Part shown: positions 9,593-35,927 of the stretch, piece by piece
How positions within the stretch are numbered: position 1 is the stretch's first letter
How the letters are laid out: each line of letters opens with the position of its first letter
Source: Planctomycetota bacterium
GTDB taxonomy: Bacteria > Planctomycetota > Phycisphaerae > Sedimentisphaerales > Anaerohalosphaeraceae
Reading direction: 5' to 3'
NCBI GenBank assembly: GCA_021160785.1
Contig: JAGHBX010000562.1
Location: forward strand, 1 to 35,927
Length of the DNA stretch: 35,927 nt
Notes under the pieces: model-generated
Seen by the model: the letters and a program-made list of their open reading frames with translations, nothing else
Databases searched by the model: none
What the model was told of the DNA's origin: nothing
Program-made: the position numbers and the translations under genes

Positions 9593-9754
9593 ACTTTGGA
9601 GATTATAAAAAGCGTTAAAACGGGAAATGCCATGCAGAATACAGTGCTAACTATACGGTTTCTATGGGCTTTTCTTGGAGGATTGCTGGGCATTCTGTAT
9701 ACAAATGACGTTTTTGTCTGTGCCAGCAGGTAAATGTGCTCGCCATTACTCTGG

Positions 9755-9893
9755 ATGGATTCTCGGCCGCCAGCCACTGCGCAGGGTCGTCAGTTTTTTT
9801 TAAAAGAATTGACTATGTTTCAAGAATATGCTATTGTTAACGTACACGGTGTGGGTTTTGAGTTTACTATCCAGACTCAGATAGGCTTGGATT
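9755..9893 (+). promoter_or_regulatory. cassette copy A: terminator-like hairpin + T-run, A/T tract, sigma70-like promoter, leader hairpin
   Basis: Hairpin ACTGCG/CG(T)CAGT at 9776-9794 followed by a T-run to 9801. -35 TTGACT at 9809-9814, 17-nt spacer, -10 TATTGT at 9832-9837. Leader hairpin at 9857-9881. Near-identical copies at 21924-22071 and 35753-35899. Confidence 0.5.
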
Positions 9894-9902
9894 ATGAGAA
9901 TG

Positions 9903-9920
9903 TTATATGGGAAATCCCAG
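9903..9920. promoter_or_regulatory. TTATATGGGAAATCCCAG motif, copy 1 (contains inverted repeat TGGGA-AA-TCCCA)
   Basis: Exact 18-nt repeat of 27861-27878. It extends to a 22-bp near-palindrome TTATATGGGAAATCCCAGATAA. It lies 24 nt upstream of the ATG at 9944. Confidence 0.35.
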
Positions 9921-9943: not shown

Positions 9944-11221
9944 ATGAGTGATCGAGGCGATATTAGTCGACGCGGGTTTTTTAAGAAGGCTTCGGCTGTT
10001 AGTGTTGGGGCTTTTGGTCTTCCTTATGTGATTCCATCGTCGGTTTTTAGCAAAGGACGAATTTTACCCAGTGAGCGTATTACCGTGGGGTTTATCGGCA
10101 CGGGTAAACAGTCTCGAAGCGTACTTCTGAGGGGTTTTCTGGGGCAAAGCAGTTGCCAGACCGTCGCTGTTTGTGATGTTGATTCCCGCAAGCGCGAACA
10201 CGCCCGGCAAATGGTCGATAAGAAGTATAAGGGTTGCTCTGAGATTCATGATTTTCGTGACTTGATAGCCCGTGATGATATTGACGCGGTCGTTGTTGCA
10301 ACACCTGACCACTGGCATGCGATTCCTTCGATTCGCGCAATGAAAGCCGGTAAGGATGTGTATTGCGAAAAGCCTTTGTCACTTACTATCGAAGAGGCTC
10401 GCGCTATGGCTGACACTACCCGGCGTTACGGGCGTGTTCTTCAGACGGGCAGCATGCAGCGGTCGGATATGAAGTTTCGGTTTGCCTGTGAGCTGGTTAG
10501 AAACGGTTACATCGGTGATATAAAGAATGTTGTTGTAAATGTCGGCGGGCCCCCGAGCGAATGTAATCTTCCGGCTGAGCCTGTTCTTAATGAACTGGAC
10601 TGGGATATGTGGCTCGGACCTGCCCCTTGGCGTCCTTATAATTCGGATATCGCTCCTCCTATTGAGAGGGATGTTTTTCCGAATTTCCGCAGCTACCGTG
10701 ATTATGCAGGCGGCGGAATGACTGATTGGGGTGCTCACCATTTCGATATCGCTCAATGGGCGCTTGGGATGGATCATACCGGTCCTGTTGAGATCATTCC
10801 GCCTAACGACAAGGATGTCAGCGTGCTTACTTATAAATATGCGAACGGGGTTGTTATGACCCGCGAAGGTACCGCAAACGGTGTTCTTTTCAACGGTACA
10901 AAGGGTAAGGTTGAAGTTAACCGCGGGTACCTTAAGACGTGGCCGGATAAGCTTGCGAGAGTTCAGCTTTCTCCGTCTGATGAGCATCTATATGCAAGTC
11001 CCGATCATTACCGGGATTTCCTGGACTGTATTCGGACTCGCAAAAAACCTATTTGTGACGTGGAGATCGGCTGTCGGTCGGCTACGGTTTGTCATATTGG
11101 TAATATTGCGTACCTGCTTGAAAGACCTCTTAAGTGGGATCCTGTTAAGGAGCGTTTTGTCGGCGACGAAGATGCTAACCGTCATCTGTCTCGCTCGATG
11201 CGCGGGCCGTGGCGACTTTAG
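9944..11221 (+). CDS. TAT-signal Gfo/Idh/MocA family NAD(P)-dependent oxidoreductase (paralog 1)
   Basis: 425 aa. Twin-arginine motif ISRRGFFKKASAVSVGAFG. Rossmann start VGFIGTGKQS. DAVVVATPDHWH and CEKPL (EKP motif). SD GAAAGG. Confidence 0.9.
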   Translation: MSDRGDISRRGFFKKASAVSVGAFGLPYVIPSSVFSKGRILPSERITVGFIGTGKQSRSVLLRGFLGQSSCQTVAVCDVDSRKREHARQMVDKKYKGCSEIHDFRDLIARDDIDAVVVATPDHWHAIPSIRAMKAGKDVYCEKPLSLTIEEARAMADTTRRYGRVLQTGSMQRSDMKFRFACELVRNGYIGDIKNVVVNVGGPPSECNLPAEPVLNELDWDMWLGPAPWRPYNSDIAPPIERDVFPNFRSYRDYAGGGMTDWGAHHFDIAQWALGMDHTGPVEIIPPNDKDVSVLTYKYANGVVMTREGTANGVLFNGTKGKVEVNRGYLKTWPDKLARVQLSPSDEHLYASPDHYRDFLDCIRTRKKPICDVEIGCRSATVCHIGNIAYLLERPLKWDPVKERFVGDEDANRHLSRSMRGPWRL

Positions 11222-11450
11222 AAATGTATAATGTCTATTGTATAATGTATAAGGAAGGAAACGGCCCTCCACAGGCGGATTTGCAACCTTGCGGCCTATA
11301 CATTTTTATTAGAAAACCGATCGCTACGCAAATTCTTTAATTGCAATGGGTTGCGTAAACAGTAAGACTGCTTTCGGTCAGTTTGAGTTTTTAAATATGG
11401 CGTGGGCACGGCCCACCCTGCAATCTTTATTTTTTTTTATGAGGTTTATT

Positions 11451-14400
11451 ATGTTTTATCGTTTCCGGGTGATTGCTTTATTTTTAGCGTTTTGTTTGTT
11501 TTCAGTTTTGGGTTTTGGTGCTGACATCAAGGTTTTGCTTGTTACGGGTCAGAATAACCATGACTGGAAAGCCAGCAGTCCAATTTTCAAGGAGACTCTC
11601 GAAAAAAGCGGTTTGTTCGATGTAGAGATGCTTGTTACCGCACCTGAGGGCGATCTTGTCGATTTTAAGCCCGATTTTTCCGCTTATGATGTCGTTGTTT
11701 CGGATTACAACGGCGGTAAGTGGGGAGCCGAGGCTGAGAAGTCTTTTGAAGAATATATGATAAACGGCGGAGGGCTTGTTGTTATCCATGCCGCGGACAA
11801 CTCTTTCAGCCAATGGGTCGAGTACAACAAAATGATCGGCCTTCGCTGGGGTGGTAACGAAAAGAACGGTCCTTATATCCGATGGCGCGGAGGTAAGTTT
11901 ATTCGCGATATGACGCCAGGCGGTGCAGGCGGCCATGGTGCACAACATGCTTTCCAGGTAATTCACCGGAACATGGAACATCCTATCACTAAAGGGCTTC
12001 CTGAAAAATGGATGCATGCCAAGGATGAGCTTTACGGTTCACTTCGAGGCCCGGCTGAGAATATGACGGTTCTTGCGACGTCTTTTGCAGATAAGTCATT
12101 AGGTGGCTCAGGTGAACATGAGCCTGTTCTCTTTACGATAAATTACGGTAAAGGGAGAGTTTTTCATACGGTGCTTGGGCATGTTGGCGGTGAATATCCT
12201 CCGCCTCCTGTTCAGTGCGCAGGTTTTATCGTAACGCTTCTTAGAGGTACGGAATGGGCAGCGACGGGTAAAGTTACCCAGCAGATTCCAGAAGATTTCC
12301 CCACGGCGGACAAATACCGTTTATGGGCCAACTACAAGGCTCCGAAATTAAGCGAGTTGCTTGCCGAGATCGCCGGGTTTGAATATGGCGATAATTCGGC
12401 TGTTTTTGATGACATAGCTGCTATTGTTACTAATGCTTACGGCAACGCTAAATTGACAAGTAAGTTTGAAGACGAGTTTGTCAAATTCCTCTCTGCGAAT
12501 TCAACACTTGCCGCCAAGCAGGCGGTTTGCAAGCAGCTTAGTATGATTGCTACGGAAAAATCTGTGCCTGTTCTGGCAAAAATGTCGGTCGATGAAGATA
12601 CGTGTGATATGGCTCGGTTCGTACTTGAACGTATATCGTCAAGTAAGGTAGATGGGGCCTTGCAAAGTGTTCTTGCTGATACAAAAGGAAGTCTCAAGGC
12701 GGGCATCATTAATATCCTCGCTGTTCGCGGCGACAGAAGCAGTGCCGTGGTAATAGGCAAGCTTATTTATGACCATGATGAGACAGTTGCTTCCTGTGCG
12801 GTAAGCGCACTCGGTAAACTTGGCGGAAAAGACGCTATTGAGGTTTTAGGCAGAGCCAAACGCAAACTTAAAGGTGATATGCACAAGCAGGTTCTTGACG
12901 CGTATCTTAGTTGTGCTTCGATTTTTGTCGAAGAAGGAGATGGAAAACAGGCGTTTGCAATTTATAAGGAATTGTACAAGCCTTCCTCGCCGCACATAAT
13001 CAGGATCGCTGCTTTGCGGGGCATGGTGATTTCTTCGGAAGAGAGTTCCGGCAAAATCATTCTTGACTGTCTTAAAGATGAAAACCCAACAGTTAAAGCG
13101 GCGGCTTTTGGGCTGGTCAGTGAGGTGTCCGATGTGTCTCAGATCAAGACGATTGCCGGTCAGCTTTCAAGACTTGATGATTCGGGTAAATTGCAACTAC
13201 TTACGGCACTTTCCGAATACGGCAGTAAAGTGGCCCTGTCGGATGTCCTTAAAGAGACAAAGAGCGGCAGCAGTCAAGTCAAGGTTGCAGCTTATAAAGC
13301 AATCGGTGTCATCGGCGATGAATCGACAATACTGCTTCTTACCAATGCAGCGGCGAGCGGTAGTAATGCAGCAGAGATCAAGGCGGCAAGGGAGAGCCTT
13401 TACCGTCTTCGCGGTAGGCAGATCGACCGGGCGATATTGACTTATATCCCTAAAACAGAAGGCAAGGTCAAAGCAGAACTTATTAACAGCGTGGCCCGTC
13501 GTCTCATTGCAGATTCTATGGACACGCTTTTGCAATGTGCACAAGATAGCGATTCAGTAGTAGTAAATGCTTCGATTAAGTCGATGGCGATTGTCGCCAG
13601 ACCGGATAATATCGCCCCAATGGTCAGGCTCCTTTCAAAGTTAAAAAGTGCCAGACAGCGACAGGACATCGAAAAGGCCATGGTCGCTGGCTTACGCAAG
13701 AATGCCGATAATGAAAATATGGACAGCGAGCTTCTTGTCCTGTTTGATTCGACGAGTAATACCGTTGCGAGATGCTCGATCATTAACGTACTTGGGCGGC
13801 TTGGCTGCGACGGTTCGCTCGGTGCGCTTCGCAAATCGCTTAAAAGCGACAATGAAGACGAAAAGGAAGCGGCATTCAGAGCTCTTGTTAAGTGGCCAAA
13901 TGCCGAGCCTATGATGGATATGCTGAAGATCGCAAAGACCGACAGTAAGCCGGTTCGTCAAATATTGGCAATAAGGAGTTATGTTCAGCTTGTCGGCAGG
14001 CCTTCGGAACGCAGTGCAAGCGAAAATGTCGAGCTTCTTAAAGAAGCGGTGGCGTTTACAAGTCGCAACGAGGAAAAGGGTATGATACTTGACGCACTTG
14101 CCGAATATTCTTGTCCGGAGGCTATAGAGCTTGCCGAGGGTTTCCTCGGAGGCGATCTTTCCTCGCAGGCAGAGACTTTGATCGCTAAGCTCAAGATGGT
14201 AACGGTTTCGGCGCGTCCCGGAGATATAGCCGGTATAACGCCTAAGGGTAATGCAGACGGCAACTTCGAGGTGAAAAAAGACGACGAAGGCGACGGAACA
14301 TTGTGTTGGGTGTTCAAGGATTATTTCTATCACGACATCGACAATGAATTCAGCAAGGATACGGGCGGATCGGTGGTAGTCGAAGTCCTTTTCAGAGATT

Positions 14401-14642
14401 ACGGTACGGGTAACTTGCAACTGCAGTACGATTCAACAGATCCTTCGGCGCCGGTTGATGGAGCGTACAAGACGGCAGCGAAAATGGTAAAACTCTACGA
14501 TAGCAGTAAGTGGCGGACAGCGACGTGGAAGATAGATGATGCCAGATTCAGTAACCGTCAAAATGCCGGATGCGATATGAGGTTCGGCGCAGGCGGCAGG
14601 GAAATCTGGTTAGCCAGGATAAAAGTCTCCAAAAAGCCCTAA
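11451..14642 (+). CDS. secreted ThuA-like domain / HEAT-repeat solenoid / C-terminal beta-sandwich fusion protein
   Basis: The ORF is open from 11346. ATG 11451 has GAGG 6 nt upstream and gives the signal peptide MFYRFRVIALFLAFCLFSVLGFGA. ThuA-like motifs: KVLLVTGQNNHDW, GGGLVVIHAADNSF, HPITKGLP, FTINYGKGRVFHTVLGH. About 700 aa of HEAT-like repeats follow (SCAVSALGKLGGKDAIEVL etc). The core is homologous to 33042..35627. Confidence 0.8.
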   Translation: MFYRFRVIALFLAFCLFSVLGFGADIKVLLVTGQNNHDWKASSPIFKETLEKSGLFDVEMLVTAPEGDLVDFKPDFSAYDVVVSDYNGGKWGAEAEKSFEEYMINGGGLVVIHAADNSFSQWVEYNKMIGLRWGGNEKNGPYIRWRGGKFIRDMTPGGAGGHGAQHAFQVIHRNMEHPITKGLPEKWMHAKDELYGSLRGPAENMTVLATSFADKSLGGSGEHEPVLFTINYGKGRVFHTVLGHVGGEYPPPPVQCAGFIVTLLRGTEWAATGKVTQQIPEDFPTADKYRLWANYKAPKLSELLAEIAGFEYGDNSAVFDDIAAIVTNAYGNAKLTSKFEDEFVKFLSANSTLAAKQAVCKQLSMIATEKSVPVLAKMSVDEDTCDMARFVLERISSSKVDGALQSVLADTKGSLKAGIINILAVRGDRSSAVVIGKLIYDHDETVASCAVSALGKLGGKDAIEVLGRAKRKLKGDMHKQVLDAYLSCASIFVEEGDGKQAFAIYKELYKPSSPHIIRIAALRGMVISSEESSGKIILDCLKDENPTVKAAAFGLVSEVSDVSQIKTIAGQLSRLDDSGKLQLLTALSEYGSKVALSDVLKETKSGSSQVKVAAYKAIGVIGDESTILLLTNAAASGSNAAEIKAARESLYRLRGRQIDRAILTYIPKTEGKVKAELINSVARRLIADSMDTLLQCAQDSDSVVVNASIKSMAIVARPDNIAPMVRLLSKLKSARQRQDIEKAMVAGLRKNADNENMDSELLVLFDSTSNTVARCSIINVLGRLGCDGSLGALRKSLKSDNEDEKEAAFRALVKWPNAEPMMDMLKIAKTDSKPVRQILAIRSYVQLVGRPSERSASENVELLKEAVAFTSRNEEKGMILDALAEYSCPEAIELAEGFLGGDLSSQAETLIAKLKMVTVSARPGDIAGITPKGNADGNFEVKKDDEGDGTLCWVFKDYFYHDIDNEFSKDTGGSVVVEVLFRDYGTGNLQLQYDSTDPSAPVDGAYKTAAKMVKLYDSSKWRTATWKIDDARFSNRQNAGCDMRFGAGGREIWLARIKVSKKP

Positions 14643-14707: not shown

Positions 14708-15259
14708 ATGAAAATAGGATGTTTTGCACTTGTTGAACCTTTCAGTCCGATGGAAAGGCAGTTTCAGGCGATAAGCGAAATGGGCATTCAGTATGCCGAT
14801 CTCACTGATAATCATAACGGGGCTATGCTTGGTGTAGAGTATGGGTTTACTGCATCAATTAGTCTTGATAGTCACCCGAAGAAGATCCGTGAGATGGTCG
14901 AAGCTGCAGGGATAACTTTGACGAGCGTTTGCGCTCATGCAAACCTGCTTGATCCGGCAAGCCCAGATACTTATGGCACCAACAGCATTACCAAAGCGGT
15001 TCGGCTTGCAAGCCTGCTGGGGATTAAGCATGTCCACTGGAAAGATATGTCCTCCGAATGGCAGGAACAACGTGGCAAACAGTATGGCTGCGGGATGGCT
15101 GTTATTCCGCTTGGAGATGGAGTTATAGATATTGAGGCCATTGTTAAAGCTTTAAAAAAATCTGGTTTTGACGGAGCTACGACCCTGGAAATTGCCGGAC
15201 CTGATAACGTAATTAAATCAATAGAAAGATTAAATGAGTGGTGGAATAATGGCAAATAA
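14708..15259 (+). CDS. xylose-isomerase-fold (AP_endonuc_2) sugar phosphate isomerase/epimerase-like protein, apparently internally truncated
   Basis: 183 aa, whereas my recollection is about 250-300 aa for the family. The N-terminal part runs to LLGIKHV and joins directly to HVHWKD..PLGDGVIDIEAIVKALKKSGFDGATTLEIAG, which resembles the C-terminal end of the barrel. The middle strands appear absent. Confidence 0.55.
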   Translation: MKIGCFALVEPFSPMERQFQAISEMGIQYADLTDNHNGAMLGVEYGFTASISLDSHPKKIREMVEAAGITLTSVCAHANLLDPASPDTYGTNSITKAVRLASLLGIKHVHWKDMSSEWQEQRGKQYGCGMAVIPLGDGVIDIEAIVKALKKSGFDGATTLEIAGPDNVIKSIERLNEWWNNGK

Positions 15260-16529
15260 GAACTCGTTAAAAGTTACGAGAAGAAATTTTCTTGCCGCAT
15301 CGGCGTCAGCTTTTGCGATACCGTATATTATCACATCAGACACTCTTGGCAAAGGCGGGAAACCTGCTGCATCACAACGTATAACTGTTGCTCATATTGG
15401 CATAGGCGGTCAGGGTACGCTGGTCATGAATGGTTTTCTGGGACTGAAAGATTCACAATCAATCGCTGTTTGTGATTGCTTCGAAGATCGGCGGCAAGGC
15501 GGGGCTAAGATAGTCGACGATAAATATACGACTACCGGCTGTAGGCAGTACAGCGATTTTCGAGATGTTCTCGCCTCTGATGATATCGATGCGGTAGTAA
15601 TTGCTACTCCCGATCACTGGCATGTTCCTATCGCTATTGCCGCAGCCAAGGCTGGTAAGGATATGTATGTCGAAAAGCCACTTGGAATGAGCATTGAGGA
15701 AAATAAGGCTCTTCGTATAGTTTTAGCGATGTACGGTAATGTTTTCCAGTACGGAACGATGCAGCGGAGTTTCTCATCTCATTGTGCGTTTGCCTGTGAT
15801 ATTGTCCGTAACGGTTATATCGGCGAACTGAAGGAGGTTCATATTACCGCTCCTACGGGAGGTTCCGGTGGTTCAACAGTGCCTGTAGATGTCCCTGAAG
15901 GGCTTGATTATGAAATGTGGCTTGGTCCTGCACCGTTTAGTCCTTTTACGAAAGACCGCTGTACACCGGGCGGGTCATATTTTTGTTATGATAACTCGCT
16001 GGGCTTTATTTCCGGGTGGGGGGCCCATCCCCTCGATATAATGCATTGGGGTTATCCATATATTCCCGTTGAATACGAAGGCACGGGTGTGATTCCGAAG
16101 AAAGGTCTTTATGATACTATAACAAACTGGAACATACGCGGGAAATTTGAAAGCGGCGTAAAGTTCTTCTTTATGGACGGACCGGATATGACAACGTTTA
16201 TTGGTAACGAAGGGACTATTTCCGTTTCGCGCCAGCAGATAACCGCCAATCCCAAATCGTTGCTTAGAACAGTCATTAAGCCAGATGAAATACACCACTT
16301 AAAGAGCAGAAACCACTACGCAGATTTTATTGGTTGTGTCAAGACTCGTTCTGCACCGTCAAGCCCAATCGACAGTGCGGTGCAATCTGACTTTATAAGC
16401 CATCTTAGTGACATAACTATTCGTACAGGTCGCAGGATTAAATGGGATCCGCAAAATGAAACGATAATTGGCGATGAAACCGCCACGAGAATGATGAAAA
16501 GGCCTATGTCAAATCCGTGGCACCTTTGA
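15249..16529 (+). CDS. TAT-signal Gfo/Idh/MocA family oxidoreductase (paralog 2)
   Basis: The track ORF starts at 15234. ATG 15249 gives MANKNSLKVTRRNFLAASASAFAIPYI with a twin-arginine motif. VAHIGIGGQG, DAVVIATPDHWH and VEKPL are present. The start overlaps the last codons of the upstream gene by 11 nt. Confidence 0.9.
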   Translation: MANKNSLKVTRRNFLAASASAFAIPYIITSDTLGKGGKPAASQRITVAHIGIGGQGTLVMNGFLGLKDSQSIAVCDCFEDRRQGGAKIVDDKYTTTGCRQYSDFRDVLASDDIDAVVIATPDHWHVPIAIAAAKAGKDMYVEKPLGMSIEENKALRIVLAMYGNVFQYGTMQRSFSSHCAFACDIVRNGYIGELKEVHITAPTGGSGGSTVPVDVPEGLDYEMWLGPAPFSPFTKDRCTPGGSYFCYDNSLGFISGWGAHPLDIMHWGYPYIPVEYEGTGVIPKKGLYDTITNWNIRGKFESGVKFFFMDGPDMTTFIGNEGTISVSRQQITANPKSLLRTVIKPDEIHHLKSRNHYADFIGCVKTRSAPSSPIDSAVQSDFISHLSDITIRTGRRIKWDPQNETIIGDETATRMMKRPMSNPWHL

Positions 16530-17283: not shown

Positions 17284-19270
17284 CGATGTGTTTTATCATC
17301 GTGCAGATAAGGACCAGAGAGAGCAGGATTTCTTCATACTCAATAAGCCGACTAAATGGCACCCGGAATGGTTAACACCTGAGATGGTCAATGAGTTATG
17401 GGATACGACTAAAGATAGCGTTGTCCCCAACGACAGATTGATGATGGATGGCGTTGACTATGCTCCTCCACAAAAAATGTTGCCTGAAATGATAGACCGT
17501 GTAAATGCCATTGACCCGCAAAAAGGACGCCTTTGGCAGCATACAGTAATGCGAAAATATGCGGAGATCATGCGTCAGAATATTGACAGATCAAAGCTCA
17601 TAAAAGTGTTTGGTGAATTGCGTGACGGCCCTGCAGGACCAACTTCGGGCAATGCACTGACAACCAGACTTTATGTAAAGCAAAAGAACAAGCTGGCTGA
17701 AAACATGTTAATTCGTTTTGCGGAGCCTTTTTCAGTTTTAACTACTATGCTCGGAGTAGAGTACCCATCCGCTCTTCTGGCAAAAGCATGGCAATTCCTT
17801 TTGAACTCTCATCCTCACGACTCGATTAACGGTGTTACTCAGGACAAGACCGTTCGAGATGTTGAAAACCGGTTGGATCAGGTAATTGACATCTCTCAGG
17901 CTCTCGGCAATAAGGCGATGCAGCAATTAATAATGAATATCGACAGATCAGGTTTTGACGAAAAAGATGTGCTGCTGGTGGTATTCAATCCTTTGCCTTA
18001 TCCAAGGCGCGAAGTTATCGATGCACAAGTGGATATCCCGAATGGCGAAGCGAACTTCTGGCCAAAGGCGGAAAATGGTTTATTTGCTTATGATCCCGAC
18101 GGCAAGGCGGTTGCGACGCAATGGATGGGATCGTTCGAGAAGACTTATCCGGTAATACAGTGGCATAGCAGGGGGTTTCCATATCATTGCAACTCACATC
18201 GTCTGTTGATCGATACCGAAGAAATACCTGCCGGCGGCTACAAGGTTTTCAAAGTCGTTTCCGTTGAAGATATAGAGGATAGGGAGATTTGCCATAAGAG
18301 CAGCCTTGTCAGCACGCCTTCACTAAGACTTGAGCCGCACACATTGGAAAATGAATATCTTAACGTTAAATTCAATGCCAATGGTACCTTTGATATTTAT
18401 TGCAAAGAACTGGACCATACGTTTGCCGACTTGAATTATTTTGAGGACCGCGGCGAATTGGGCGACTACTGGATCAATAACGTTCCCGTAAATGACCAGA
18501 TACACACATCGCTTGGCTGCAATGCAAGGATACGGACCAAAGAGCACGGCCCTTTGCAAGCTACTGTTGTTACGGAACTGACAATGGAGATTCCTAAACG
18601 CGGCATACCTTCTGAGCAGTCAAGAAGCGGTGAACTCGAAGAACTCAAGATACAGACATCTGTTACGTTAAAGAAGGACTGTAGGGCTGTTGAAGTTGAG
18701 GTGACTTTTGAAAACAAGTGCAGGGATCATTATTTACGTGTCATGATGCCGACTGATCTTGAAAATGCAACCCACGCCGATTCCGGCGGTCACTTCAATG
18801 TTGACTCCAGGCCGATCAAAACTCAGGGCCCTGAGCCTGGGTGTATTTGGCCTGACATGGTAACATTGCCTCATCAGCGTTTTGTCGATGTCAGTGATTG
18901 CAAGGGCGATTGGTATGAATCAAACATTCCATTGCAGGCAGACATCTTCAATGTTCCTGTTAGAATTGTTCAGACAAAAAAGATGGCTGGTTGCTTACCA
19001 GCCGGCAAGGCAAGTTTGTTTTCGATCGATAACCCCAATATCAGGTTATCCGCATTGAAAAAGGCTCAGGACAGCGATAACTTTATTCTGCGGGTATATA
19101 ACTCTACGGACCAAAAGCAAAATTCTACAGTTACGCTTTGCAAAGAGATCAAACAGGCATGGCAGACAGATTTAAATGAAAAACGGACCGATGCCTGCCA
19201 AATGGAAAAGAACTCTATCAAGTTAGCTCTTGACCCTCGTAAAATTGCAACATTTGAAATTATGATCTAA
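17180..19270 (+). pseudogene. GH38 alpha-mannosidase, middle and C-terminal fragment (frame 2)
   Basis: Continues GH38 features: MMDGVDYAPPQ, GELRDG, WQFLLNSHPHDSINGVTQDKTV, HQRFVDVSD, ILRVYNSTDQ. It overlaps the upstream fragment by 104 nt in a different frame. Confidence 0.8.
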
Positions 19271-21812: not shown

Positions 21813-21923
21813 CTCACATTTTTTATTATTTGAGAGATGTAGAATTCTTTATTTCTATCTAACGAAGGGATCTTTTGTGGGTTACCCTGTTTGTTGGATG
21901 CCCTGAGTAACTTAACAACAGGG

Positions 21924-22071
21924 TTAGATACCGATTCTCGGCTGGCAGCCACTGTGCAGGGTCGTCAGGTGTTTAAAAAAAAGAATTGACTATGTTTCAA
22001 GAATATGCTATTGTTAACGTACACGGCGCAGGTTCTTGGGCTTGCTATCGGGACCCAGAAAGACTTGTATT
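21924..22071 (+). promoter_or_regulatory. cassette copy B (promoter/leader for the prepilin-like gene)
   Basis: -35 TTGACT at 21986-21991, 17-nt spacer, -10 TATTGT at 22009-22014. Leader hairpin at about 22037-22057. A 10-bp bulged hairpin CCCTGT(T)TGTT/AACAACAGGG lies just before it at 21885-21923. Confidence 0.5.
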
Positions 22072-22953
22072 ATGAGAAAAAAAGGATTTACCTTGATTGA
22101 GCTTTTGGTTGTTATCGCCATAATCGCGTTATTGCTCAGTATTCTCATGCCAGTGTTGAATACAGTAAAGAAATCAGTTCAGGGCATCTTATGTGCTTCC
22201 AATGTGCGGCAATTGTCTTTAGGGTGGTTTTTATATAACGAACCAAATGGCGGGAATTTAATGCGTGCTGAAAACAATGAGCTGGTTTTGAGTTCTAGTA
22301 AAATTATCCCTCCGTGGGCGTACCAGTCGGAAATGAACCTGATAGGCGGCCCGGACGAACCTCAGGTAGAGTCTGATAAGGTAGCTATCCGCAGAGGAGC
22401 GTTGTGGCCGTATGTCGAGCATATAAAAGTATATCACTGTCCGGCTGACCGTGTTTCAAGACTCGGGCAGATGTCGGCTAATGTGTACAGGAGTTTTTCG
22501 ATGCCGCAATCGATGAATGGAGATGGTAATGCTTCAGGACAACTTAATCCGTGGCAGGCTTCAAAAGAATCCCGCATCAAAACCCCAAGCGCTAAAATGA
22601 TCTTTCTGACAGAGTTTGACGTCTGGGTTCCCGGTGTGATGGGCAATTGGGGATCGTGGGTTATGGATTACGGCAATCTCGGGAATTTCTGGGATCCTAT
22701 CGCGGTATGGCATAACAATGGAGGGACTCTGGGCTTTGCCGATGGGCACGCTGAGATGCATAAATGGAGAGACCGTGAAACCCTTGAGATGGCGAAAAAC
22801 TTTTCGGTTGGAAATGTTTCTGATCCCGCCAATAACGTCGATGTTATTTACATGAAGAACGCATACCGCGCGACTGGAAGATATAAGTGGCTATTGCCCC
22901 ATAGCCCAAACTCGCCGTTTGGCTGGTTTAGGGTTATTATATCCAATGCCTGA
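22072..22953 (+). CDS. prepilin-type N-terminal cleavage/methylation-domain protein with H-X9-DG motif (DUF1559-like)
   Basis: The track ORF starts at TTG 22036. ATG 22072 gives the canonical MRKKGFTLIELLVVIAIIALLLSILMPVLN. The C-terminal WHNNGGTLGFADGHAEMH is an exact H-X9-DG. Confidence 0.85.
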   Translation: MRKKGFTLIELLVVIAIIALLLSILMPVLNTVKKSVQGILCASNVRQLSLGWFLYNEPNGGNLMRAENNELVLSSSKIIPPWAYQSEMNLIGGPDEPQVESDKVAIRRGALWPYVEHIKVYHCPADRVSRLGQMSANVYRSFSMPQSMNGDGNASGQLNPWQASKESRIKTPSAKMIFLTEFDVWVPGVMGNWGSWVMDYGNLGNFWDPIAVWHNNGGTLGFADGHAEMHKWRDRETLEMAKNFSVGNVSDPANNVDVIYMKNAYRATGRYKWLLPHSPNSPFGWFRVIISNA

Positions 22954-30160: not shown

Positions 30161-30219
30161 AGGATGCCCTATAGTAATAAATAGCTTTTGCTAAAAAATA
30201 GCATTTGGAAGGTATTTTG

Positions 30220-31533
30220 ATGAACACTATTAGATATAAAACACTTGGCATATTAGCATTGATATTTGTGTCATGTTTTATCAATGTCCTTTCAGCCGAC
30301 ACTGTTGCTCAACACCCAATACTTTATCAGGGCTTGGTGTCTTATTATGAATTTGAAGATAATTTTGCAGATCAGCTTGGGCGTAACGACGGCAAGCTGA
30401 ACAAGAATAACACATCTTCCTTTGTCGATGGTTTAATAGGTAAAGCGTTTTATACAAAAGACCAGGGAACTCATATCTCTTTGGGCCCTGATATAATTCT
30501 GGCGAGGAAATCTTTTTCGATTCAGGTTTGGGTCAAGCTTGATTACCCGCGTTTTAAGCATAATGTGCACTTTTTTCAGTTTGAACAACGATCGGTAAAA
30601 GATGAAAATCTGGTAGTCGCATCAATAGAGAACCATGTCAAGCTGGCCTATCACTGGAATGATATTAATGGGCCTGAAGTTGCCGATTTTTCAAAGTGGA
30701 CGCATATAGTTATAACCGCGGATTTTAATGAATATAATGACATCGGCAGGTCGCGAAAAATATATGTAAACGGCGAGCTGAGAGCCGAAGATCGTATGCA
30801 GGGCGGCATATTTATTGGCACCATCGGCCAGGCCAGGATTGCCAGTTCCTGTGAGGACACAAGGTTTGACAATCTAGGCATCTGGTATAGAAGCCTGGAT
30901 GCCACTGAGGTTTCAGCATTGTACAATGATGGCAAAGGTTTGGCATTCGGTCAGTTAAAGGGTTCCCAGCCCAGTATGCAATTTACAAACCCATCAGCTG
31001 GTCAACTATTGCGATCTGATAGCATAGTTGATCTTAAATGGAACGCTGAAGGCAGACCGCTTAGTCTTGTCAACCTTGAATATAAGGCTGACAACAATCA
31101 ATGGCAGCTTATCGAAAAAAATATCCCCTCCACGGGTAGTTTTCTATGGAAAGTGCCCTATCACCAAAGCGATAATGTTCGTCTAAGACTTACTGATGTA
31201 TCGAACGGGAAACAATACACCCAGCAAAACAGTTTTTCTATTAAGCCGACAGTTGTAAGTATAAGCGACGTTAAATGGATTACGTCAAAGTCTACTCCAG
31301 GCCACAGAGCGCAAATAAGATGGAACAACACCGGTCGGATAGAACGAGTAAAGATCATGTATTCAGTTGACGGTAAAAAATGGGAACTGATAGATGCGTC
31401 CACTGAAAACGACAATATATATGTATGGCGAATCCCCTGGGATCTAAAAGCAGAGAGTTTCAAGGTTCGTATCAGTGATATTACCAGCAACACCGATGCA
31501 GACAGTGGTATTATCAAAGTAGATAGAAAGTAG
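30220..31533 (+). CDS. secreted LamG (concanavalin-like lectin) domain protein with two C-terminal Ig-like beta-sandwich repeats
   Basis: The track ORF starts at 30205. ATG 30220 follows GGAAGG and gives MNTIRYKTLGILALIFVSCFINVLSA. LamG-type LVSYYEFEDN..GKAFY..FSIQVWVKL..LGIWYRSLDATEVSALYNDGKG. Two repeats end in FLWKVPYHQSDNVRLRLTDVSNG and YVWRIPWDLKAESFKVRISDITSN. Confidence 0.8.
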   Translation: MNTIRYKTLGILALIFVSCFINVLSADTVAQHPILYQGLVSYYEFEDNFADQLGRNDGKLNKNNTSSFVDGLIGKAFYTKDQGTHISLGPDIILARKSFSIQVWVKLDYPRFKHNVHFFQFEQRSVKDENLVVASIENHVKLAYHWNDINGPEVADFSKWTHIVITADFNEYNDIGRSRKIYVNGELRAEDRMQGGIFIGTIGQARIASSCEDTRFDNLGIWYRSLDATEVSALYNDGKGLAFGQLKGSQPSMQFTNPSAGQLLRSDSIVDLKWNAEGRPLSLVNLEYKADNNQWQLIEKNIPSTGSFLWKVPYHQSDNVRLRLTDVSNGKQYTQQNSFSIKPTVVSISDVKWITSKSTPGHRAQIRWNNTGRIERVKIMYSVDGKKWELIDASTENDNIYVWRIPWDLKAESFKVRISDITSNTDADSGIIKVDRK

Positions 31534-31604: not shown

Positions 31605-32987
31605 ATGTCGAATAAATCATTAAGCCGTAGAGGTTTTTTGAAGGTCTCGGCAGTTGCCGCTGTTGGGACGATCGGTTTTCCTGCAGTTGTTCCTGCTTCT
31701 GCCCTTGGCGGCGCGGGCAGAGTCAGTCCGAGCAATCGTATAACTGCTGCGGTTATTGGCTGCGGGAGCCAGTGCAACGGTGACGTTGGTATATTCGCCG
31801 ATCCGCGGTGCCAAGTGCTTGCTGTTTGCGACCCTAATAAGGAGAGCGTTGGCTATATGGGCCTTTTGCCTATCGGAGGCAGAGAGCCGTTTCGCCGTAG
31901 GATAAACAGCTGGTATGCTCACGAGAAACGCGACGGTACTTATAAAGGCTGCGATGCCTATATCGATTACCGTGAGATTGCATCTCGCGATGACATTGAC
32001 GCGGTTTTGGTGTGTACACCGGATCACTGGCATGTTCCAATCAGTCTTGCGTGCATAGAATCGGGGAAGGATGTTTATTGCGAAAAGCCCTTGTCTCTTA
32101 CGATCAGCGAGGGACGTGTCCTTGCCGATGCGGTTAAGCAGTACGGCAGGATATTCCAGGTCGGTTCGCAGCAGCGCAGCTCCGCTGAGTTTCGTCGTGC
32201 GTGCGAGCTTGTTCGTAACGGTCGTATCGGCAAGCTGCATACTGTGAGGGCAGGTTTGCCTGGCGGGTGCAGTGATTGCTGCAATCCTCAGTGGACCGGC
32301 GGTGTTTCGTGGGGGACAAAAAGAAAACCAGAGCCGGTTCCAGAGGGGCTTGATTATAATATGTGGCTTGGTTGTGCACCCGAGCGACCTTATATACCCG
32401 CACTTTCACATGCCAACTGGCGTTGGAACCTTGATTACTCAGGCGGGCAACTGACAGACTGGGGCGGTCATCATCCTGATATTGCCCAGTGGGGAATGGA
32501 TACAGAGGATACCGGACCGATCGCTATCAGAAACGCCTGCGGCAAATTTAAACATGACGATATATGGAATACGGCGCGTGAGTATTATTTTGAATGCGAA
32601 TATGCTAACGGCGTTGTTCTTATCGTTGACAACAGCGGCGGCGGCGTTCAGTTTATTGGCGACCATGGCTGGGTACATGTTAATCGTGGTTGGATGAAAT
32701 GCAGTTCCGATGAGATATTCAGATCGCGTATCGGTGATGACGAGATACACCTTTATGAAAGCCAGAGTCATGCAAAGAACTTTATAGACGGCATCATTAC
32801 CCGCAAGGAGACGATCGCTCCTGCTGAGACGGGGCACAGGTCGATCTCGATCGTACATCTTGGCAATATCGCGATGCAGTTGGAACGGAGTTATCTCAAG
32901 TGGGATCCGGATAAGGAGATTTTCCCCGATGACGAAGAAGCTAACCGAATGCTTTCAAGGCCAAAGCGTCAGTGGTGGAGAATTTAA
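31605..32987 (+). CDS. TAT-signal Gfo/Idh/MocA family oxidoreductase (paralog 3)
   Basis: 460 aa. MSNKSLSRRGFLKVSAVAAVGTIGFPAVVPASA (twin-arginine motif). AAVIGCGSQ, DAVLVCTPDHWH and CEKPL are present. SD GGGAG. Confidence 0.9.
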   Translation: MSNKSLSRRGFLKVSAVAAVGTIGFPAVVPASALGGAGRVSPSNRITAAVIGCGSQCNGDVGIFADPRCQVLAVCDPNKESVGYMGLLPIGGREPFRRRINSWYAHEKRDGTYKGCDAYIDYREIASRDDIDAVLVCTPDHWHVPISLACIESGKDVYCEKPLSLTISEGRVLADAVKQYGRIFQVGSQQRSSAEFRRACELVRNGRIGKLHTVRAGLPGGCSDCCNPQWTGGVSWGTKRKPEPVPEGLDYNMWLGCAPERPYIPALSHANWRWNLDYSGGQLTDWGGHHPDIAQWGMDTEDTGPIAIRNACGKFKHDDIWNTAREYYFECEYANGVVLIVDNSGGGVQFIGDHGWVHVNRGWMKCSSDEIFRSRIGDDEIHLYESQSHAKNFIDGIITRKETIAPAETGHRSISIVHLGNIAMQLERSYLKWDPDKEIFPDDEEANRMLSRPKRQWWRI

Positions 32988-33041
32988 CTGTCCTTAAGTT
33001 TTATAGATGACATGCACATTATCTTTAGAAAGGGTTTTATT

Positions 33042-35627
33042 GTGAGAAATATAAAAGTGACGCTGGCAGGAATTGTCGCTGCTGCTTTAATGTTCAACGG
33101 TGTTGTTTCAGCTGAGAGTTGGGTTGACAAGGCCAAAAAAGAGAAACCTAATGCCGAGCGGTTTTTTAAAGAGACCAATCTTAATTCCGGTTTTCACAAA
33201 GATAGACCCAGGATCAATTCCGATGAGCTTGGCAGGAGACTTGACAGGATGCTTGGCGGTATGAAGGGTTATAAATACGGCGATGAATCGGGCGATGTGG
33301 CGAACTTTAGAACGACCATGGAGTCTGCATACGGCAATAGGGATTTGCAGCGTTTAGCGGAGAAGCGTTTTATCGCATATCTTCAAACTGACGCGTCGTA
33401 TCAGGCAAAGCAGATGGTTTGCAGGGAATTACGCAAGATCGGCAGCGGCGAATGTGTGGCGGTTCTTGGCAAGATGCTTGTAGATCCGGAATTTTCGGAT
33501 ATGGGACGGTATGCGCTGGAGTGTAATATGTCGGCAGGTGCTGACGAGGCGTTTGTTGCCGCGGTCGATAAGACGAACGGTCAGGTTAAGGCCGGTATTA
33601 TAAACTCTATAGGTGTTCGCCGGAGTGCGGCTGCGACAGATACGCTCGCAAAGCTTGTAAATGCCGGCGATTCGATGGTTGCTGAGGCGGCGATAGCGGC
33701 TTTGGGGCAGATCGGGACGGTTCGTTCAGCTGAGATTTTGCAGAAGGCAAAGGGCGATGTTTCGAGGGCACTTATACGGTGTGCCAACAGGATTAGCGAA
33801 AGCGATAAGGAAGCTGCCGGTAAGATCTATGCTGGGCTTTCCGATTCCAGAGCCAACTGGCGCATCCGTGTTGCAGCGGTCAAGGGTATGCTTGAATTGA
33901 AACCTACTGGAACAAAGCTGGATGGTATTGTTGATGATGTTGCCGATGCGCTTACAAGTAGTGATGCGGAGAATAGGGCTATTGGTGTTGCTGTTGTCGG
34001 GGCACTTCCGGGTGACAGTTGTATTACCAGGAAAATTGCCGGGGTTGTTAATAAGTGCGAGCCTTATGTTCAGGAGCAGTTGATATATTCACTTGGTGAG
34101 CGTGGTGACAGTGCTGCTCTAGATGCGGTATCGGCGGCAGCTGATTCGAAAGACACGTTTGTTCGGCAGGCGTCGCTCGAGACGCTGGGCAGAATCGGCA
34201 ATGCTTCTTCGATAGTTCTTCTGGCTAACAAGAATGCCAAGGGGTCGAAAGAGGAAAAAGAGATTGCCCTTACGAGTTTGCGGCGTCTTAAAGGAGAGGG
34301 CATAGAAAATGCCTTCAGTGAACTTATCAAATCCGGACCGGAAGGCAGCAGAAGGGATGTCATCTATGCTGTCGGCCAGCGTCGTATGTATCAAGCTTTT
34401 GACGATATGTACCAGATTGCCAAAAACGAAGATAACGCTCGTATTCGAAGAGAGGCGATTCTGTCGCTGGGATACCTGTCCAAAGCCGATCAGATCGATA
34501 AACTTGTTGGGCTTGCGACATATCCGAAGGAAGTAGGTGACGGTTCGGCGATTGAAAAATCGGTGGTTATGGTTTTCGAATTAATAAAAGATAAAAATGC
34601 CCAGGCCAAACCGGTTATCGCAACTTTCAAAGATGCACCGGACGAGGCAAAGCCGCTGCTCTTGAAACTGCTTAACAAACCTGCTACGCGCGAGGCATTT
34701 GATGTGGTAAGTTCGGCGGTGAAATCATCGAATCCCAAGGTTAGTGATGCGGCTATCCGTTCGCTTGGCGACTGGCCCAATTATGATGCTGCTGATGTGC
34801 TTTACAGTATTGCCTCTGGCAGTTCAAGTCAACTGCACAGTGTTCTTGCTCTTAGAGGTTATGTTCGCATGGCACAGATGGCCGATGATCCCGTAATCAT
34901 TTATTCAAAAGCCATGAAACTGGCTAAACGGCCTCAGGAGGTCACGATGGTTCTTTCAGGACTCGGCAGTGCCGATTCATTTGAGGCTATCGAGGTGGTC
35001 AAAAAGTATATGCAGGACGAACGGTTCAAGCCTGAGGCTTTTAATGCCGCGATAAACATTTCAAGCAGGTATTGCTGGCATGATTATTCCGGCACGAAGT
35101 CGCTTATGGAGAGTATCATGGCCCAGACGCCGAGTAAAAGCATACGTGATAAGGCCGGCAAGGTAATCGACCAGATGAACAGGTTTAACGGTAATATTTT
35201 CAAGTGGTATATTTCAGAGCTTTATAAAATCGACGGCAAGAATGGCGACAGTGTATTCAAGATGACTTTTGATGTGGAGAATGATATCACTAAGGCTAAG
35301 TGGAGCAAATTTGACTGTCCGACTGACAAAGAAGATATCGATCTGGAAGAGCTGCGTTTTGGTGATGTGAACAATTGCAGCGTGTATCTTTATAACTATA
35401 TTTATTCATCCATCGAGCAGGAGGCCAAAACGCATATGGGGGCCGATGACAGGATCAAGGCATGGATCAACGGTGTTGAGATCGAGAATGACCGCTTTAA
35501 ATTCCGCAAGGGCAAAAATACCTTTATGATAAAAGTCGGAGATTTAGACGGGGGTTGGCGTTTCAGGTGTAGGGTTACCAAACCAGATGACTCACGCATT
35601 GAAAATTTAAGGTTTGCACTTAGGTAG
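33042..35627 (+). CDS. secreted HEAT-repeat solenoid protein with C-terminal PA14/GH2N-like beta-sandwich; paralog of the HEAT core of 11451..14642
   Basis: The ORF is open from ATG 33012. GTG 33042 follows AAAGGG and gives (M)RNIKVTLAGIVAAALMFNGVVSA. AKQMVCRELRKIGSGECVAVLGKML aligns with AKQAVCKQLSMIATEKSVPVLAKMS, and VKAGIINSIGVRR aligns with LKAGIINILAVRG, in the 1098-aa ORF. The C-terminus is GADDRIKAWINGVEIEN..FMIKVGDLDGGWRFRCRV. Confidence 0.8.
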   Translation: MRNIKVTLAGIVAAALMFNGVVSAESWVDKAKKEKPNAERFFKETNLNSGFHKDRPRINSDELGRRLDRMLGGMKGYKYGDESGDVANFRTTMESAYGNRDLQRLAEKRFIAYLQTDASYQAKQMVCRELRKIGSGECVAVLGKMLVDPEFSDMGRYALECNMSAGADEAFVAAVDKTNGQVKAGIINSIGVRRSAAATDTLAKLVNAGDSMVAEAAIAALGQIGTVRSAEILQKAKGDVSRALIRCANRISESDKEAAGKIYAGLSDSRANWRIRVAAVKGMLELKPTGTKLDGIVDDVADALTSSDAENRAIGVAVVGALPGDSCITRKIAGVVNKCEPYVQEQLIYSLGERGDSAALDAVSAAADSKDTFVRQASLETLGRIGNASSIVLLANKNAKGSKEEKEIALTSLRRLKGEGIENAFSELIKSGPEGSRRDVIYAVGQRRMYQAFDDMYQIAKNEDNARIRREAILSLGYLSKADQIDKLVGLATYPKEVGDGSAIEKSVVMVFELIKDKNAQAKPVIATFKDAPDEAKPLLLKLLNKPATREAFDVVSSAVKSSNPKVSDAAIRSLGDWPNYDAADVLYSIASGSSSQLHSVLALRGYVRMAQMADDPVIIYSKAMKLAKRPQEVTMVLSGLGSADSFEAIEVVKKYMQDERFKPEAFNAAINISSRYCWHDYSGTKSLMESIMAQTPSKSIRDKAGKVIDQMNRFNGNIFKWYISELYKIDGKNGDSVFKMTFDVENDITKAKWSKFDCPTDKEDIDLEELRFGDVNNCSVYLYNYIYSSIEQEAKTHMGADDRIKAWINGVEIENDRFKFRKGKNTFMIKVGDLDGGWRFRCRVTKPDDSRIENLRFALR

Positions 35628-35752
35628 TAAATTAAAGGATCACAAATGCTCTGTAGAAAAGCTCTGAATTTTCACCGTTAAACCTTGCGCTATCTCGGGA
35701 TTGACCTCTGCAGTGCAGTGCGGGGCGTCGATGGGCCTGAAGAATACACCGG

Positions 35753-35899
35753 CTAGATACCGAATCTCGGCCGCCAGCCGCTGCGCAGGGTCGTCAGTTT
35801 TTTTAAAAAAGAATTGACTATATTTCAAGAATACGCTATTGTTAACGTACACGGTGCAGGGTTTTGAGTTTGTTATCCAGACTCAGAGAGGCTTGGATT
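35753..35899 (+). promoter_or_regulatory. cassette copy C (promoter/leader)
   Basis: Hairpin + T-run at 35777-35804. -35 TTGACT at 35814-35819, 17-nt spacer, -10 TATTGT at 35837-35842. Leader hairpin at 35863-35887. ATG at 35900. Confidence 0.5.
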
Positions 35900-35927
35900 A
35901 TGAGAAAAGGATTTATCTTCGTAGGGA
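35900..35927 (+). CDS. 5' end of a CDS running off the window (MRKGFIFVG...), possibly a diverged prepilin-like gene
   Basis: The ATG is in the same position relative to the cassette as MRKKGFTLIELL at 22072. Only 9 codons are visible, and they do not show the canonical TLIEL. Confidence 0.35.

Follow-up and report, generated by a model that had tools for sequence, protein, structure and literature searches.

We analysed a 35,927-nt stretch of DNA from a Planctomycetota bacterium (Anaerohalosphaeraceae; assembly GCA_021160785.1, contig JAGHBX010000562.1, positions 1–35,927, forward strand), hereafter called the window. Twice in this window, a gene for a Gfo/Idh/MocA dehydrogenase (Gfo) with a twin-arginine translocation (Tat) signal is followed by a gene for a HEAT-repeat protein with a general secretory (Sec) signal, at 9944–14642 (pair A) and at 31605–35627 (pair B). 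A first-pass annotation of the window had pointed out this recurrence in the same order, and the open reading frames (ORFs), Pfam matches, Tat motifs and Sec signals all agree with it. The adjacency of the two genes is strongly conserved in relatives and across several bacterial phyla, isolated two-gene modules included, and the HEAT genes are very probably linked in function to the dehydrogenase genes. Every large ORF of the window lies on the + strand. The genes of the two pairs, with the layout of the HEAT proteins, are as follows.

9944..11221, + strand: dehydrogenase A (P0001), 425 amino acids (aa), Tat-signal Gfo/Idh/MocA protein (Pfam PF01408 and PF19051, motif SRRGFFK, tree placement)
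11451..14642, + strand, within ORF 11346–14642: HEAT protein A (P0002), 1063 aa from ATG 11451, subfamily II (Pfam, BLASTP, tree)
Layout of HEAT protein A: Sec signal peptide; ThuA at ~11526–12320; HEAT-family core at ~12309–14147; C-terminal jelly roll resembling a carbohydrate-binding module (CBM) at 14190–14639
31605..32987, + strand: dehydrogenase B (P0003), 460 aa, Tat-signal Gfo/Idh/MocA protein of the typical HEAT-adjacent group (Pfam, structure matches, tree)
33042..35627, + strand, in an ORF open from 33012: HEAT protein B (P0004), likely GTG start at 33042, subfamily I (Pfam, BLASTP, tree, model)
Layout of HEAT protein B: Sec signal peptide; linker of ~70 aa; HEAT-family core at ~33201–35012; PA14-like C-terminal domain at 35169–35624

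The start codons that the first-pass annotation had preferred for the HEAT genes proved to be the better choices. ATG 11451 is preceded by a GAGG box and GTG 33042 by AGAAAGGG, and each yields a classical Sec signal peptide. A database protein with 99% identity over the C-terminal 150 residues of P0002 (P0092) has a length of 1063 aa, exactly as predicted from ATG 11451.

Protein families of the two pairs

The dehydrogenases P0001 and P0003 are 43% identical (E 6e-119), and both contain the domains GFO_IDH_MocA and GFO_IDH_MocA_C2. PF01408 scores 75 bits in P0001 and 58 bits in P0003 against a cut-off of 24, and PF19051 scores 132 and 116 bits against a cut-off of 23.3. Near the N-terminus of each protein, a twin-arginine motif is followed by a hydrophobic stretch (SRRGFFKKASAVSVGAFG in P0001, with SRRGFFK; SRRGFLKVSAVAAVGTIG in P0003, with SRRGFLK), and both are hence predicted to be exported; the Pfam TAT_signal profile gives P0003 19.1 bits, which is under its cut-off of 22.7. 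The best NCBIfam model for both is the glycoside 3-dehydrogenase family BT_2158_fam (NF058561), with 149 bits for P0001 and 131 bits for P0003. These scores are far below the cut-off of 750, and the two proteins are therefore relatives rather than equivalogs of BT2158.

Among solved structures, P0003 is nearest to 8tdh and 8tdf (E 5e-20), which we take to stem from the same study as 8tdi, and next to DgpA-type C-glycoside 3-oxidoreductases and the glucuronide 3-dehydrogenase 8tdi. In the alignment with 8tdh, P0003 keeps the equivalents of the EKP motif, Gln161, Trp195 and Asp248-x3-His252, while the equivalent of Arg192 is Asn (the numbering assumes that 8tdh is AL3). Arg192 contacts the sugar in AL3, and the equivalent of Gln161 adjoins the cofactor. 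Judged by these structure matches and residues, the dehydrogenases may be competent and of the glycoside-dehydrogenase kind, and they would presumably oxidise C3 of a glycoside. In the BT2158/AL3 group the nicotinamide cofactor is tightly bound, is exported with the protein and needs to be recycled in the periplasm (PMC8121099; 10.1101/2024.03.25.586180).

The first-pass annotation had further claimed that the two HEAT proteins align over most of their length, and had suggested pairwise and profile–profile alignment as a check. Both kinds of alignment identify them as true homologues once repeat similarity is discounted. BLASTP returned a single collinear high-scoring segment pair (HSP) between residues 322–934 of P0002 and 64–667 of P0004 (623 columns, 28% identity, E 2e-58), and the next HSP had an E-value of 1.7. 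Since no off-register HSP accompanies the collinear one, the likeness is position-specific and not a matter of shared repeats. An hhalign comparison of the two subfamily alignments gave a probability of 100% (E 3e-141, 789 columns). HEAT_2 (PF13646) scores 94.2 bits in P0002 and 132.2 bits in P0004, well above its cut-off of 27.7. The core of the family spans ~650 residues and has invariant residues and motifs of its own (C137, ARYALE, GIIN, R203, C257, R457, DWP). With P0004 as query, 87 homologues were retrieved. The tree of the HEAT core has two well-supported deep clades, namely subfamily I (21 rows, including P0004), which is mostly devoid of ThuA, and subfamily II (61 rows, including P0002), where ThuA is fused, separate or carried on a split-off N-terminal half. 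All trees were made with FastTree and include several long branches.

Nothing in the curated families matches the HEAT proteins beyond generic HEAT repeats. The repeats are of the Pfam HEAT_2/HEAT_PBS type and their best matches among solved structures are alphaRep designs. NblB (NF045915) scores 52.8 and 56.4 bits against a cut-off of 300 and CpeY 24 bits against 600, which places the HEAT proteins outside these phycobilisome-type families, and no haem, flavin or iron–sulphur motif is present in them. The N-termini of 19 sampled homologues resemble signal peptides in a crude hydrophobicity check. In two homologues, P0009 and P0014, the signal peptide ends in a lipobox-like Cys (..YVGC and ..GGC), so that the protein may be a membrane-tethered lipoprotein in some lineages. 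The idea that the HEAT proteins are cytoplasmic Tat chaperones of the TorD/DmsD kind was rejected because of their Sec signal peptides. Taken together, these sequence features assign both HEAT proteins to one conserved family of predicted secreted alpha-solenoid proteins, undescribed so far. A full-text literature search found no published description of a Gfo–HEAT or ThuA–HEAT partnership.

The terminal domains differ between the two proteins, as the first-pass annotation had described them. It had assigned an N-terminal ThuA domain and a distinct C-terminal beta-sandwich to the first HEAT protein. Indeed, ThuA (PF06283) scores 96.8 bits in P0002 against a cut-off of 33.4, and residues 61–325 match PDB entry 4e5v (E 2.5e-91). 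The last 150 residues are modelled with high confidence (predicted local distance difference test, pLDDT, 93) as a jelly roll that resembles ephrin-receptor ligand-binding domains, CBM6 and CBM22. This module of ~105 residues, which is uncurated, is a singleton among the 80 loci surveyed below. Elsewhere it occurs in 897 cluster representatives (E up to 1e-3), with 1–5 copies per protein, including GH99-like, Glyco_hydro_cc, GxGYxYP, RGI-lyase-like and caspase-domain proteins and another ThuA–HEAT protein. We regard it as a candidate for a new family of CBMs.

For the second HEAT protein, the annotation had proposed that ThuA is lacking and that the C-terminus is a PA14-like sandwich. Pfam detects no ThuA in P0004, and the sandwich is recovered by fold and not by sequence. 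Its last 152 residues were modelled with AlphaFold2 (pLDDT 91), and the top Foldseek matches of the model are PA14 carbohydrate-binding domains (6xa5, E 2e-4; 5j6y), with E-values from 2e-4 to 3e-3 and a template-modelling score of only ~0.5. Among the matches are the PA14 domain of a Marinomonas adhesin, the PA14 insert of a K. marxianus beta-glucosidase, flocculins and one GH2 enzyme. Pfam PA14 (PF07691) does not match residues 691–871 of P0004 even at E-values up to 10, while the 1497-aa protein of the window reaches 93 bits for PA14. The model thus predicts a PA14-type beta-sandwich fold for this domain. Extensions of the P0004 type, ~150–170 residues long, are the commonest C-terminal extension of the family (cluster n = 47) and occur in both subfamilies. 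Neither the two C-terminal domains nor the N-terminal linker of P0004 has a credible Pfam match at E up to 10. Both C-terminal modules look like carbohydrate binders and would presumably bind sugars.

Conservation of the gene order in relatives

We assembled 80 loci, one genome per species, with an alignment-based scan that started from 11 sequences. Most of them are from Planctomycetota (Sedimentisphaerales, Phycisphaerae, Pirellulales), and a few are from about eight other lineages, comprising Hydrogenedentota, Verrucomicrobiota (Kiritimatiellae, Limisphaerales), Sumerlaeota, KSB1, Acidobacteriota and one locus each under the labels Anaerolineales and Rhodospirillales. We scanned the six-frame ORFs of all 80 with a hidden Markov model (HMM) built from the three dehydrogenases of the window. 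With this crude gene calling, a Tat-type Gfo gene was found directly upstream of the HEAT gene in 48 of the 74 evaluable cases over both subfamilies. The first-pass annotation had proposed such a survey, with loss of the adjacency in relatives as a result that would speak against its idea; the adjacency is kept. For subfamily I the figure is 17 of 20, compared to 5 of the 87 non-adjacent genes in the same flanks (5.7%). For subfamily II it is 31 of 54, and in another 14–16 cases only a ThuA-like gene of ~300 aa lies between the two. The remaining exceptions of both subfamilies mostly have a Gfo gene at most 2 kb upstream on the same strand. At two loci Gfo is downstream instead, ~1 kb away in L035 and abutting in L069_7113, and L014 also has a Gfo gene ~1 kb downstream. 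These counts are phylogenetically non-independent, and subfamily I still covers about seven deep lineages from at least four phyla.

The arrangement is also strongly polar. Among Gfo matches of at least 350 bits, 122 precede the HEAT gene and 4 follow it, every one of them on its strand; matches of 100–350 bits are distributed the other way, with 106 downstream and 18 upstream. A Tat motif is present in 226 of the 238 Gfo genes of these loci. In public gene calls with Pfam labels, the gene just before HEAT is Gfo in five contexts, and in a sixth ThuA alone stands between the two. Gene orders in these relatives are listed below.

L081 (HEAT P0011): Gfo, triosephosphate isomerase (TIM) barrel, Gfo, ThuA, HEAT, Gfo, Gfo, Gfo, seven-CxxCH cytochrome c, Ni_hydr_CYTB cytochrome b, membrane protein, Gfo
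L085 (HEAT P0033): operon as in L081, except that ThuA and HEAT form one fused gene; also a TIM::DUF1080 fusion
L089 (HEAT P0018): four Gfo and ThuA upstream, HEAT::F5/8-type-C, then DUF1080 and two Gfo
L083/L084 (HEAT P0025, 871 aa): isolated Gfo–HEAT pair between LpxC/FabZ and tricorn protease, with a 4-nt gap in L083
L087 (HEAT P0010, a HEAT::DUF1080 fusion): isolated Gfo–HEAT pair amid housekeeping genes, with a 4-nt gap
L090 (HEAT P0041, Verrucomicrobiales): Gfo then HEAT::FG-GAP, after esterase genes
L091 (HEAT P0053, labelled Binatia): isolated Gfo–HEAT pair

The two subfamilies have different surroundings. Subfamily I travels as a two-gene module through otherwise unrelated neighbourhoods, and genes for ThuA, a TIM barrel, DUF1080 or a cytochrome are essentially absent within 8 kb of it. 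In subfamily II, ThuA is present at 51 of 61 loci, a TIM barrel at 31 and a cytochrome at 16, the last figure being limited by the length of the flanks. The large operons end in genes for a cytochrome c of ~610–630 aa with seven CxxCH motifs, a Ni_hydr_CYTB-type cytochrome b of ~220–230 aa and a membrane protein of ~445 aa (L081, 16322–20324; L085, 16006–19892); homologues of this set occur in 13–17 of the 80 loci and are absent from the window. Even operons with up to eight dehydrogenase genes have one HEAT gene.

The fusions observed are ThuA::HEAT, HEAT::DUF1080 (PF06439, '3keto-disac_hyd'), HEAT::F5/8-type-C, HEAT::FG-GAP and HEAT::PA14-like, and ThuA is a separate gene exactly in those loci that lack the ThuA fusion. 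These fusions tie the HEAT family to the 3-keto-glycoside pathway.

In 19 of the 80 loci, two neighbouring genes encode what is otherwise a single protein of the family, with the break always at the same point (HMM position ~263, after 'RGM'). These are L011 (6969–8708 and 8712–10040), L023, L034, L036, L039, L044, L046, L050, L051, L054, L057, L065, L067, L068, L070, L075, L077, L078 and L079. The first half comprises the ThuA-like part and the N-terminal part of the HEAT core, and the second half always has its own Met and Sec signal peptide; the two are in the same frame in 12–13 of the 19 loci. Since each half has its own signal peptide and the second also its own start, the gene has truly undergone fission, and the two products are both exported. 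For the same reason, recoding or read-through at an in-frame stop between the halves was ruled out.

Origin and surroundings of the two pairs

The first-pass annotation had interpreted the two pairs as a duplicated, domain-shuffled two-gene module, and had taken this as the reason to link the HEAT protein to the dehydrogenase. The link itself is upheld by the adjacency in relatives and other phyla and by the isolated modules, whereas the duplication, as worded, is not supported. P0001 belongs to a clade of 24 in the Gfo tree (support 99) in which all the others are encoded two or three genes before HEAT, and its best matches are 59–64% identical. P0003 and the third Gfo protein of the window fall in a large group that provides 36 of the 39 directly HEAT-adjacent dehydrogenases. 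The closest relatives of P0003 (45–57% identity) are Gfo proteins encoded mostly in subfamily II operons, several right next to HEAT, and the Gfo proteins beside the nearest HEAT relatives of P0004 (L001, L002) are only 36–37% identical to P0003. The HEAT and Gfo trees thus rule out a recent tandem or segmental duplication. With HEAT proteins in two deep, widespread subfamilies and dehydrogenases in different groups, the pairs represent ancient paralogous arrangements with re-assorted partners. Because partners were exchanged while the order of Gfo and then HEAT was kept, selection appears to have acted on the arrangement, rather than mere inheritance having preserved it.

Pair A looks like a reduced form of the large operon type in which the TIM-barrel enzyme has decayed, and pair B is of the minimal two-gene type. 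As ThuA with a Gfo-type dehydrogenase is already known as ThuAB, pair A is in part a ThuB/ThuA arrangement with HEAT fused on. Other features around the pairs are given here.

9747..9903, + strand: non-coding cassette copy of ~150 nt, promoter/leader-like, before dehydrogenase A (repeat families D2/D4)
14708..15259, + strand: xylose-isomerase-like TIM-barrel remnant, 183 aa (Pfam AP_endonuc_2, profile positions 180–248 only)
15234..16529, + strand: third Tat-type Gfo/Idh/MocA dehydrogenase, 431 aa (Pfam; in the tree, of the Gfo group normally directly upstream of HEAT)
35751..35908, + strand: non-coding cassette copy downstream of HEAT protein B (repeat families D2/D4)

The TIM-barrel remnant aligns in two pieces to homologues of ~295 aa (L005, L010, L017), with ~80 internal residues and the N-terminal part gone. 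The cassette is present in three copies (9747–9903, 21922–22080 and 35751–35908; 61–85% identity over 112 nt), each before or between transcription units. The copy at 9747–9903 is the probable start of the pair-A transcription unit, and the position of the copy at 35751–35908, downstream of HEAT protein B, suggests that the pair-B unit ends there. The gap of 229 nt that separates dehydrogenase A from HEAT protein A showed no stable RNA structure (z +1.2), and between the dehydrogenase stop codon and ATG 11451 there was no terminator-like site except a 5-bp stem at 11366.

The wider neighbourhood is a glycan-degradation locus, with a major facilitator superfamily (MFS) sugar transporter, two GH120-like proteins, a GH67N-like protein, a GH38 enzyme in two ORFs, the 1497-aa PA14 protein, a LamG protein and prepilin-type N-methyl proteins. 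The GH38 alpha-mannosidase is spread over the overlapping ORFs 16576–17283 (N domain) and 17180–19270 (middle and C domains), which suggests a frameshift. A 64-nt stretch at 1064–1127 is 81% identical to 30875–30938, and this suggests a domain common to the 5'-terminal ORF (2–1030) and the LamG protein gene (30205–31533).

The role of the HEAT protein and known systems

On balance, we lean towards a role of the HEAT proteins as non-catalytic periplasmic scaffolds or adaptors that would physically bind glycoside dehydrogenases. The clients would be glycoside dehydrogenases of the Gfo/Idh/MocA type, related to BT2158/AL3 and to ThuB, that are Tat-exported and loaded with NAD(P). Such a dehydrogenase would be exported in folded form with its nicotinamide cofactor bound, and would dock on the HEAT solenoid in the periplasm. 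The solenoid would bring along, either fused or encoded by a neighbouring gene, ThuA, a 3-keto-glycoside hydrolase of the DUF1080 family or a beta-sandwich that resembles carbohydrate-binding modules; in the window, these sandwiches would be the CBM6/22-like jelly roll of protein A and the PA14-like domain of protein B. In this way, the scaffold could keep the enzyme, the glycan and the follow-up activities together, so that labile 3-keto intermediates are handed on, and the bound cofactor could be re-oxidised locally. In the multi-dehydrogenase operons of relatives, which also encode the seven-haem cytochrome c and the cytochrome b, a single set of HEAT and ThuA would serve several paralogous dehydrogenases.

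A more far-reaching version is tentative, and we consider it unlikely in its full extent. Here the HEAT solenoid would be the scaffoldin-like hub of a periplasmic oxidative glycan-processing metabolon, docking several Gfo dehydrogenases, ThuA, the DUF1080 hydrolase and lectin-like modules. Coupling to the seven-haem cytochrome c and cytochrome b, in lineages that respire, would let sugar oxidation outside the cytoplasm feed the quinone pool. The metabolon would then be a widespread, undescribed complex of Planctomycetota and several other phyla.

Several observations weigh against a dehydrogenase scaffold. HEAT solenoids are generic binders, and the ligand might be something other than a dehydrogenase. 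Of all neighbouring genes at subfamily II loci, 39% are Gfo genes, and adjacency alone is therefore weak evidence there. The dehydrogenase that adjoins HEAT is not one fixed orthologue, and this variation in orthologue group makes a strictly specific one-to-one complex unlikely. Furthermore, DUF1080, cytochromes and an intact TIM-barrel enzyme are all absent from the window. The operon arrangement of the BT2156–BT2160 type, with DUF1080 and/or an intact TIM barrel beside the dehydrogenase, is thus missing from the window and present in the subfamily II operons of relatives. The best sigma-70-like match of the region (10/12, at 11217–11246) is inside the 229-nt gap, so an internal promoter is possible and strict co-transcription of pair A may fail. 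Finally, a search of sequencing runs found the sequence in DNA metagenomes only (hydrothermal vents, marine sediment) and in no RNA data set.

Alternative explanations have to be weighed against the same data. That the pairing is due to chance or artefact, with a HEAT likeness made up of repeats or low complexity and an adjacency that simply reflects the great abundance of Gfo (294 matches in the 80 loci), has a negligible probability and is refuted by our results: the HEAT proteins give a single collinear alignment without off-register HSPs and an hhalign match at 100% probability, Gfo is adjacent in 17 of 20 subfamily I cases against the background of 5.7%, and the strong Gfo matches are strictly polar and all on the same strand. 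It is improbable, in our view, that the HEAT protein is mainly an electron-transfer adaptor. Together with ThuA, such an adaptor would dock the dehydrogenase, loaded with NAD(P)H, to cytochromes of the periplasm, so that sugar oxidation feeds the quinone pool, and it might bind a redox cofactor itself. This would fit the cytochrome c, cytochrome b and membrane protein encoded downstream in subfamily II operons, where 16 of 61 loci have a cytochrome despite short flanks. It would also fit the description of ThuAB, in which the Gfo-type ThuB and ThuA make 3-keto-disaccharides and which is classed with the cytochrome-c-dependent dehydrogenases (Liu et al. 2021, PMC8121099), as well as the PBS-lyase HEAT-like type of the repeats and the two cysteines that are invariant or nearly so in the family. 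However, the two-gene modules of subfamily I, pair B included, have neither cytochrome nor ThuA within 8 kb, the window is devoid of cytochromes, and the HEAT proteins lack haem, flavin and iron–sulphur motifs and match NblB and the phycobilin lyases at scores far under the cut-offs.

We likewise doubt that the HEAT protein with its lectin-like module is an independent glycan-binding or glycan-presenting protein, which would bind polysaccharide alone and merely be co-regulated with the dehydrogenase, without contact between the two. The C-terminal modules of PA14-, CBM6/22-, F5/8-type-C- and FG-GAP-like type, and the position of both pairs within glycan-degradation loci (GH120, GH38, PA14 and LamG proteins), are in line with this explanation. 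Yet many members of the family consist of the core only (~650–700 aa) and still have a dehydrogenase or ThuA gene next to them, although they have no lectin-like module. Moreover, the fusions join the family to ThuA and DUF1080, enzymes or partners from the same pathway, and not to glycoside hydrolases. Coupled expression is suggested by the constant gene order and the 4-nt spacing. Quite unlikely, too, is a periplasmic maturation, stabilising or regulatory factor that protects, activates or inhibits the cofactor-loaded dehydrogenase without being a pathway scaffold. It could act, for example, on a regulatory loop such as that of AL3, which obstructs the active site of the partner (10.1101/2024.03.25.586180), and it would be consistent with one HEAT gene serving several dehydrogenase genes. 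The fusions to ThuA, DUF1080 and binding modules are, however, easier to explain by co-localisation, and the HEAT proteins match no known chaperone or regulator family.

Oxidative cleavage of glycosides, by oxidation at C3 followed by elimination or hydrolysis, was resolved only recently, in gut Bacteroidota. This raises the question of how dehydrogenases that keep their nicotinamide cofactor permanently bound are arranged and re-oxidised once they have been exported from the cytoplasm. A non-catalytic partner that is both conserved and dedicated would point to a physical assembly that is missing from the published models. It would make the HEAT protein a concrete candidate for co-expression with dehydrogenases that are often hard to assay alone, and might provide a first functional context for ThuA. 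In addition, a Gfo gene followed by a gene of the HEAT family could serve as a genomic marker with which to find loci for oxidative glycan degradation in Planctomycetota and in other phyla that have been little studied. Should HEAT only be co-regulated, two conserved gene families would have gained a useful annotation and nothing more.

The closest known system is the 3-keto-glycoside pathway of BT2156–BT2160 in B. thetaiotaomicron and AL1–AL4 in Alistipes (PMC8121099; 10.1101/2024.03.25.586180), in which the steps are, in order, oxidation, elimination, hydration and reduction. It shares with our loci the Tat-exported Gfo dehydrogenase with EKP and D-x3-H, the AP_endonuc_2 TIM barrels and DUF1080 found in the operons of relatives, and the periplasmic setting in glycan loci. 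In contrast, the known system has no HEAT or ThuA component. The dehydrogenases of the window also differ from BT2158 in their scores of 149 and 131 bits against the equivalog cut-off of 750 and, in P0003, in the Asn at the position of Arg192, and the window has no DUF1080 and only a remnant of the TIM barrel.

A second comparison is with ThuAB, the trehalose/disaccharide 3-dehydrogenase of Sinorhizobium and Agrobacterium (Ampomah et al. 2013, as cited in PMC8121099). As in ThuAB, a ThuB-like Gfo gene adjoins a gene of the ThuA family in pair A and in most subfamily II operons. As far as ThuAB is portrayed in that citing paper, it lacks the HEAT solenoid of ~650 residues to which ThuA is fused here, or which it precedes. 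By the same account, further differences are that pair B and subfamily I are devoid of ThuA and that the proteins described here have export signals.

The repeat type, HEAT_2/HEAT_PBS, is shared with the PBS-lyase HEAT-like proteins (NblB, CpcE/CpeY) and with the alphaRep designs. The matches to NblB, CpcE and CpeY are only those of generic repeats, however, and the present family is secreted, about three times longer, equipped with its own invariant motifs and found in another genomic context. Cellulosome scaffoldins, finally, would resemble the HEAT proteins by analogy, not homology, as non-catalytic, modular, secreted proteins that carry a carbohydrate-binding module and gather paralogous enzymes. 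Instead of cohesins and dockerins, the HEAT family would use an alpha-solenoid, its location would be periplasmic, and its clients would be dehydrogenases rather than hydrolases.

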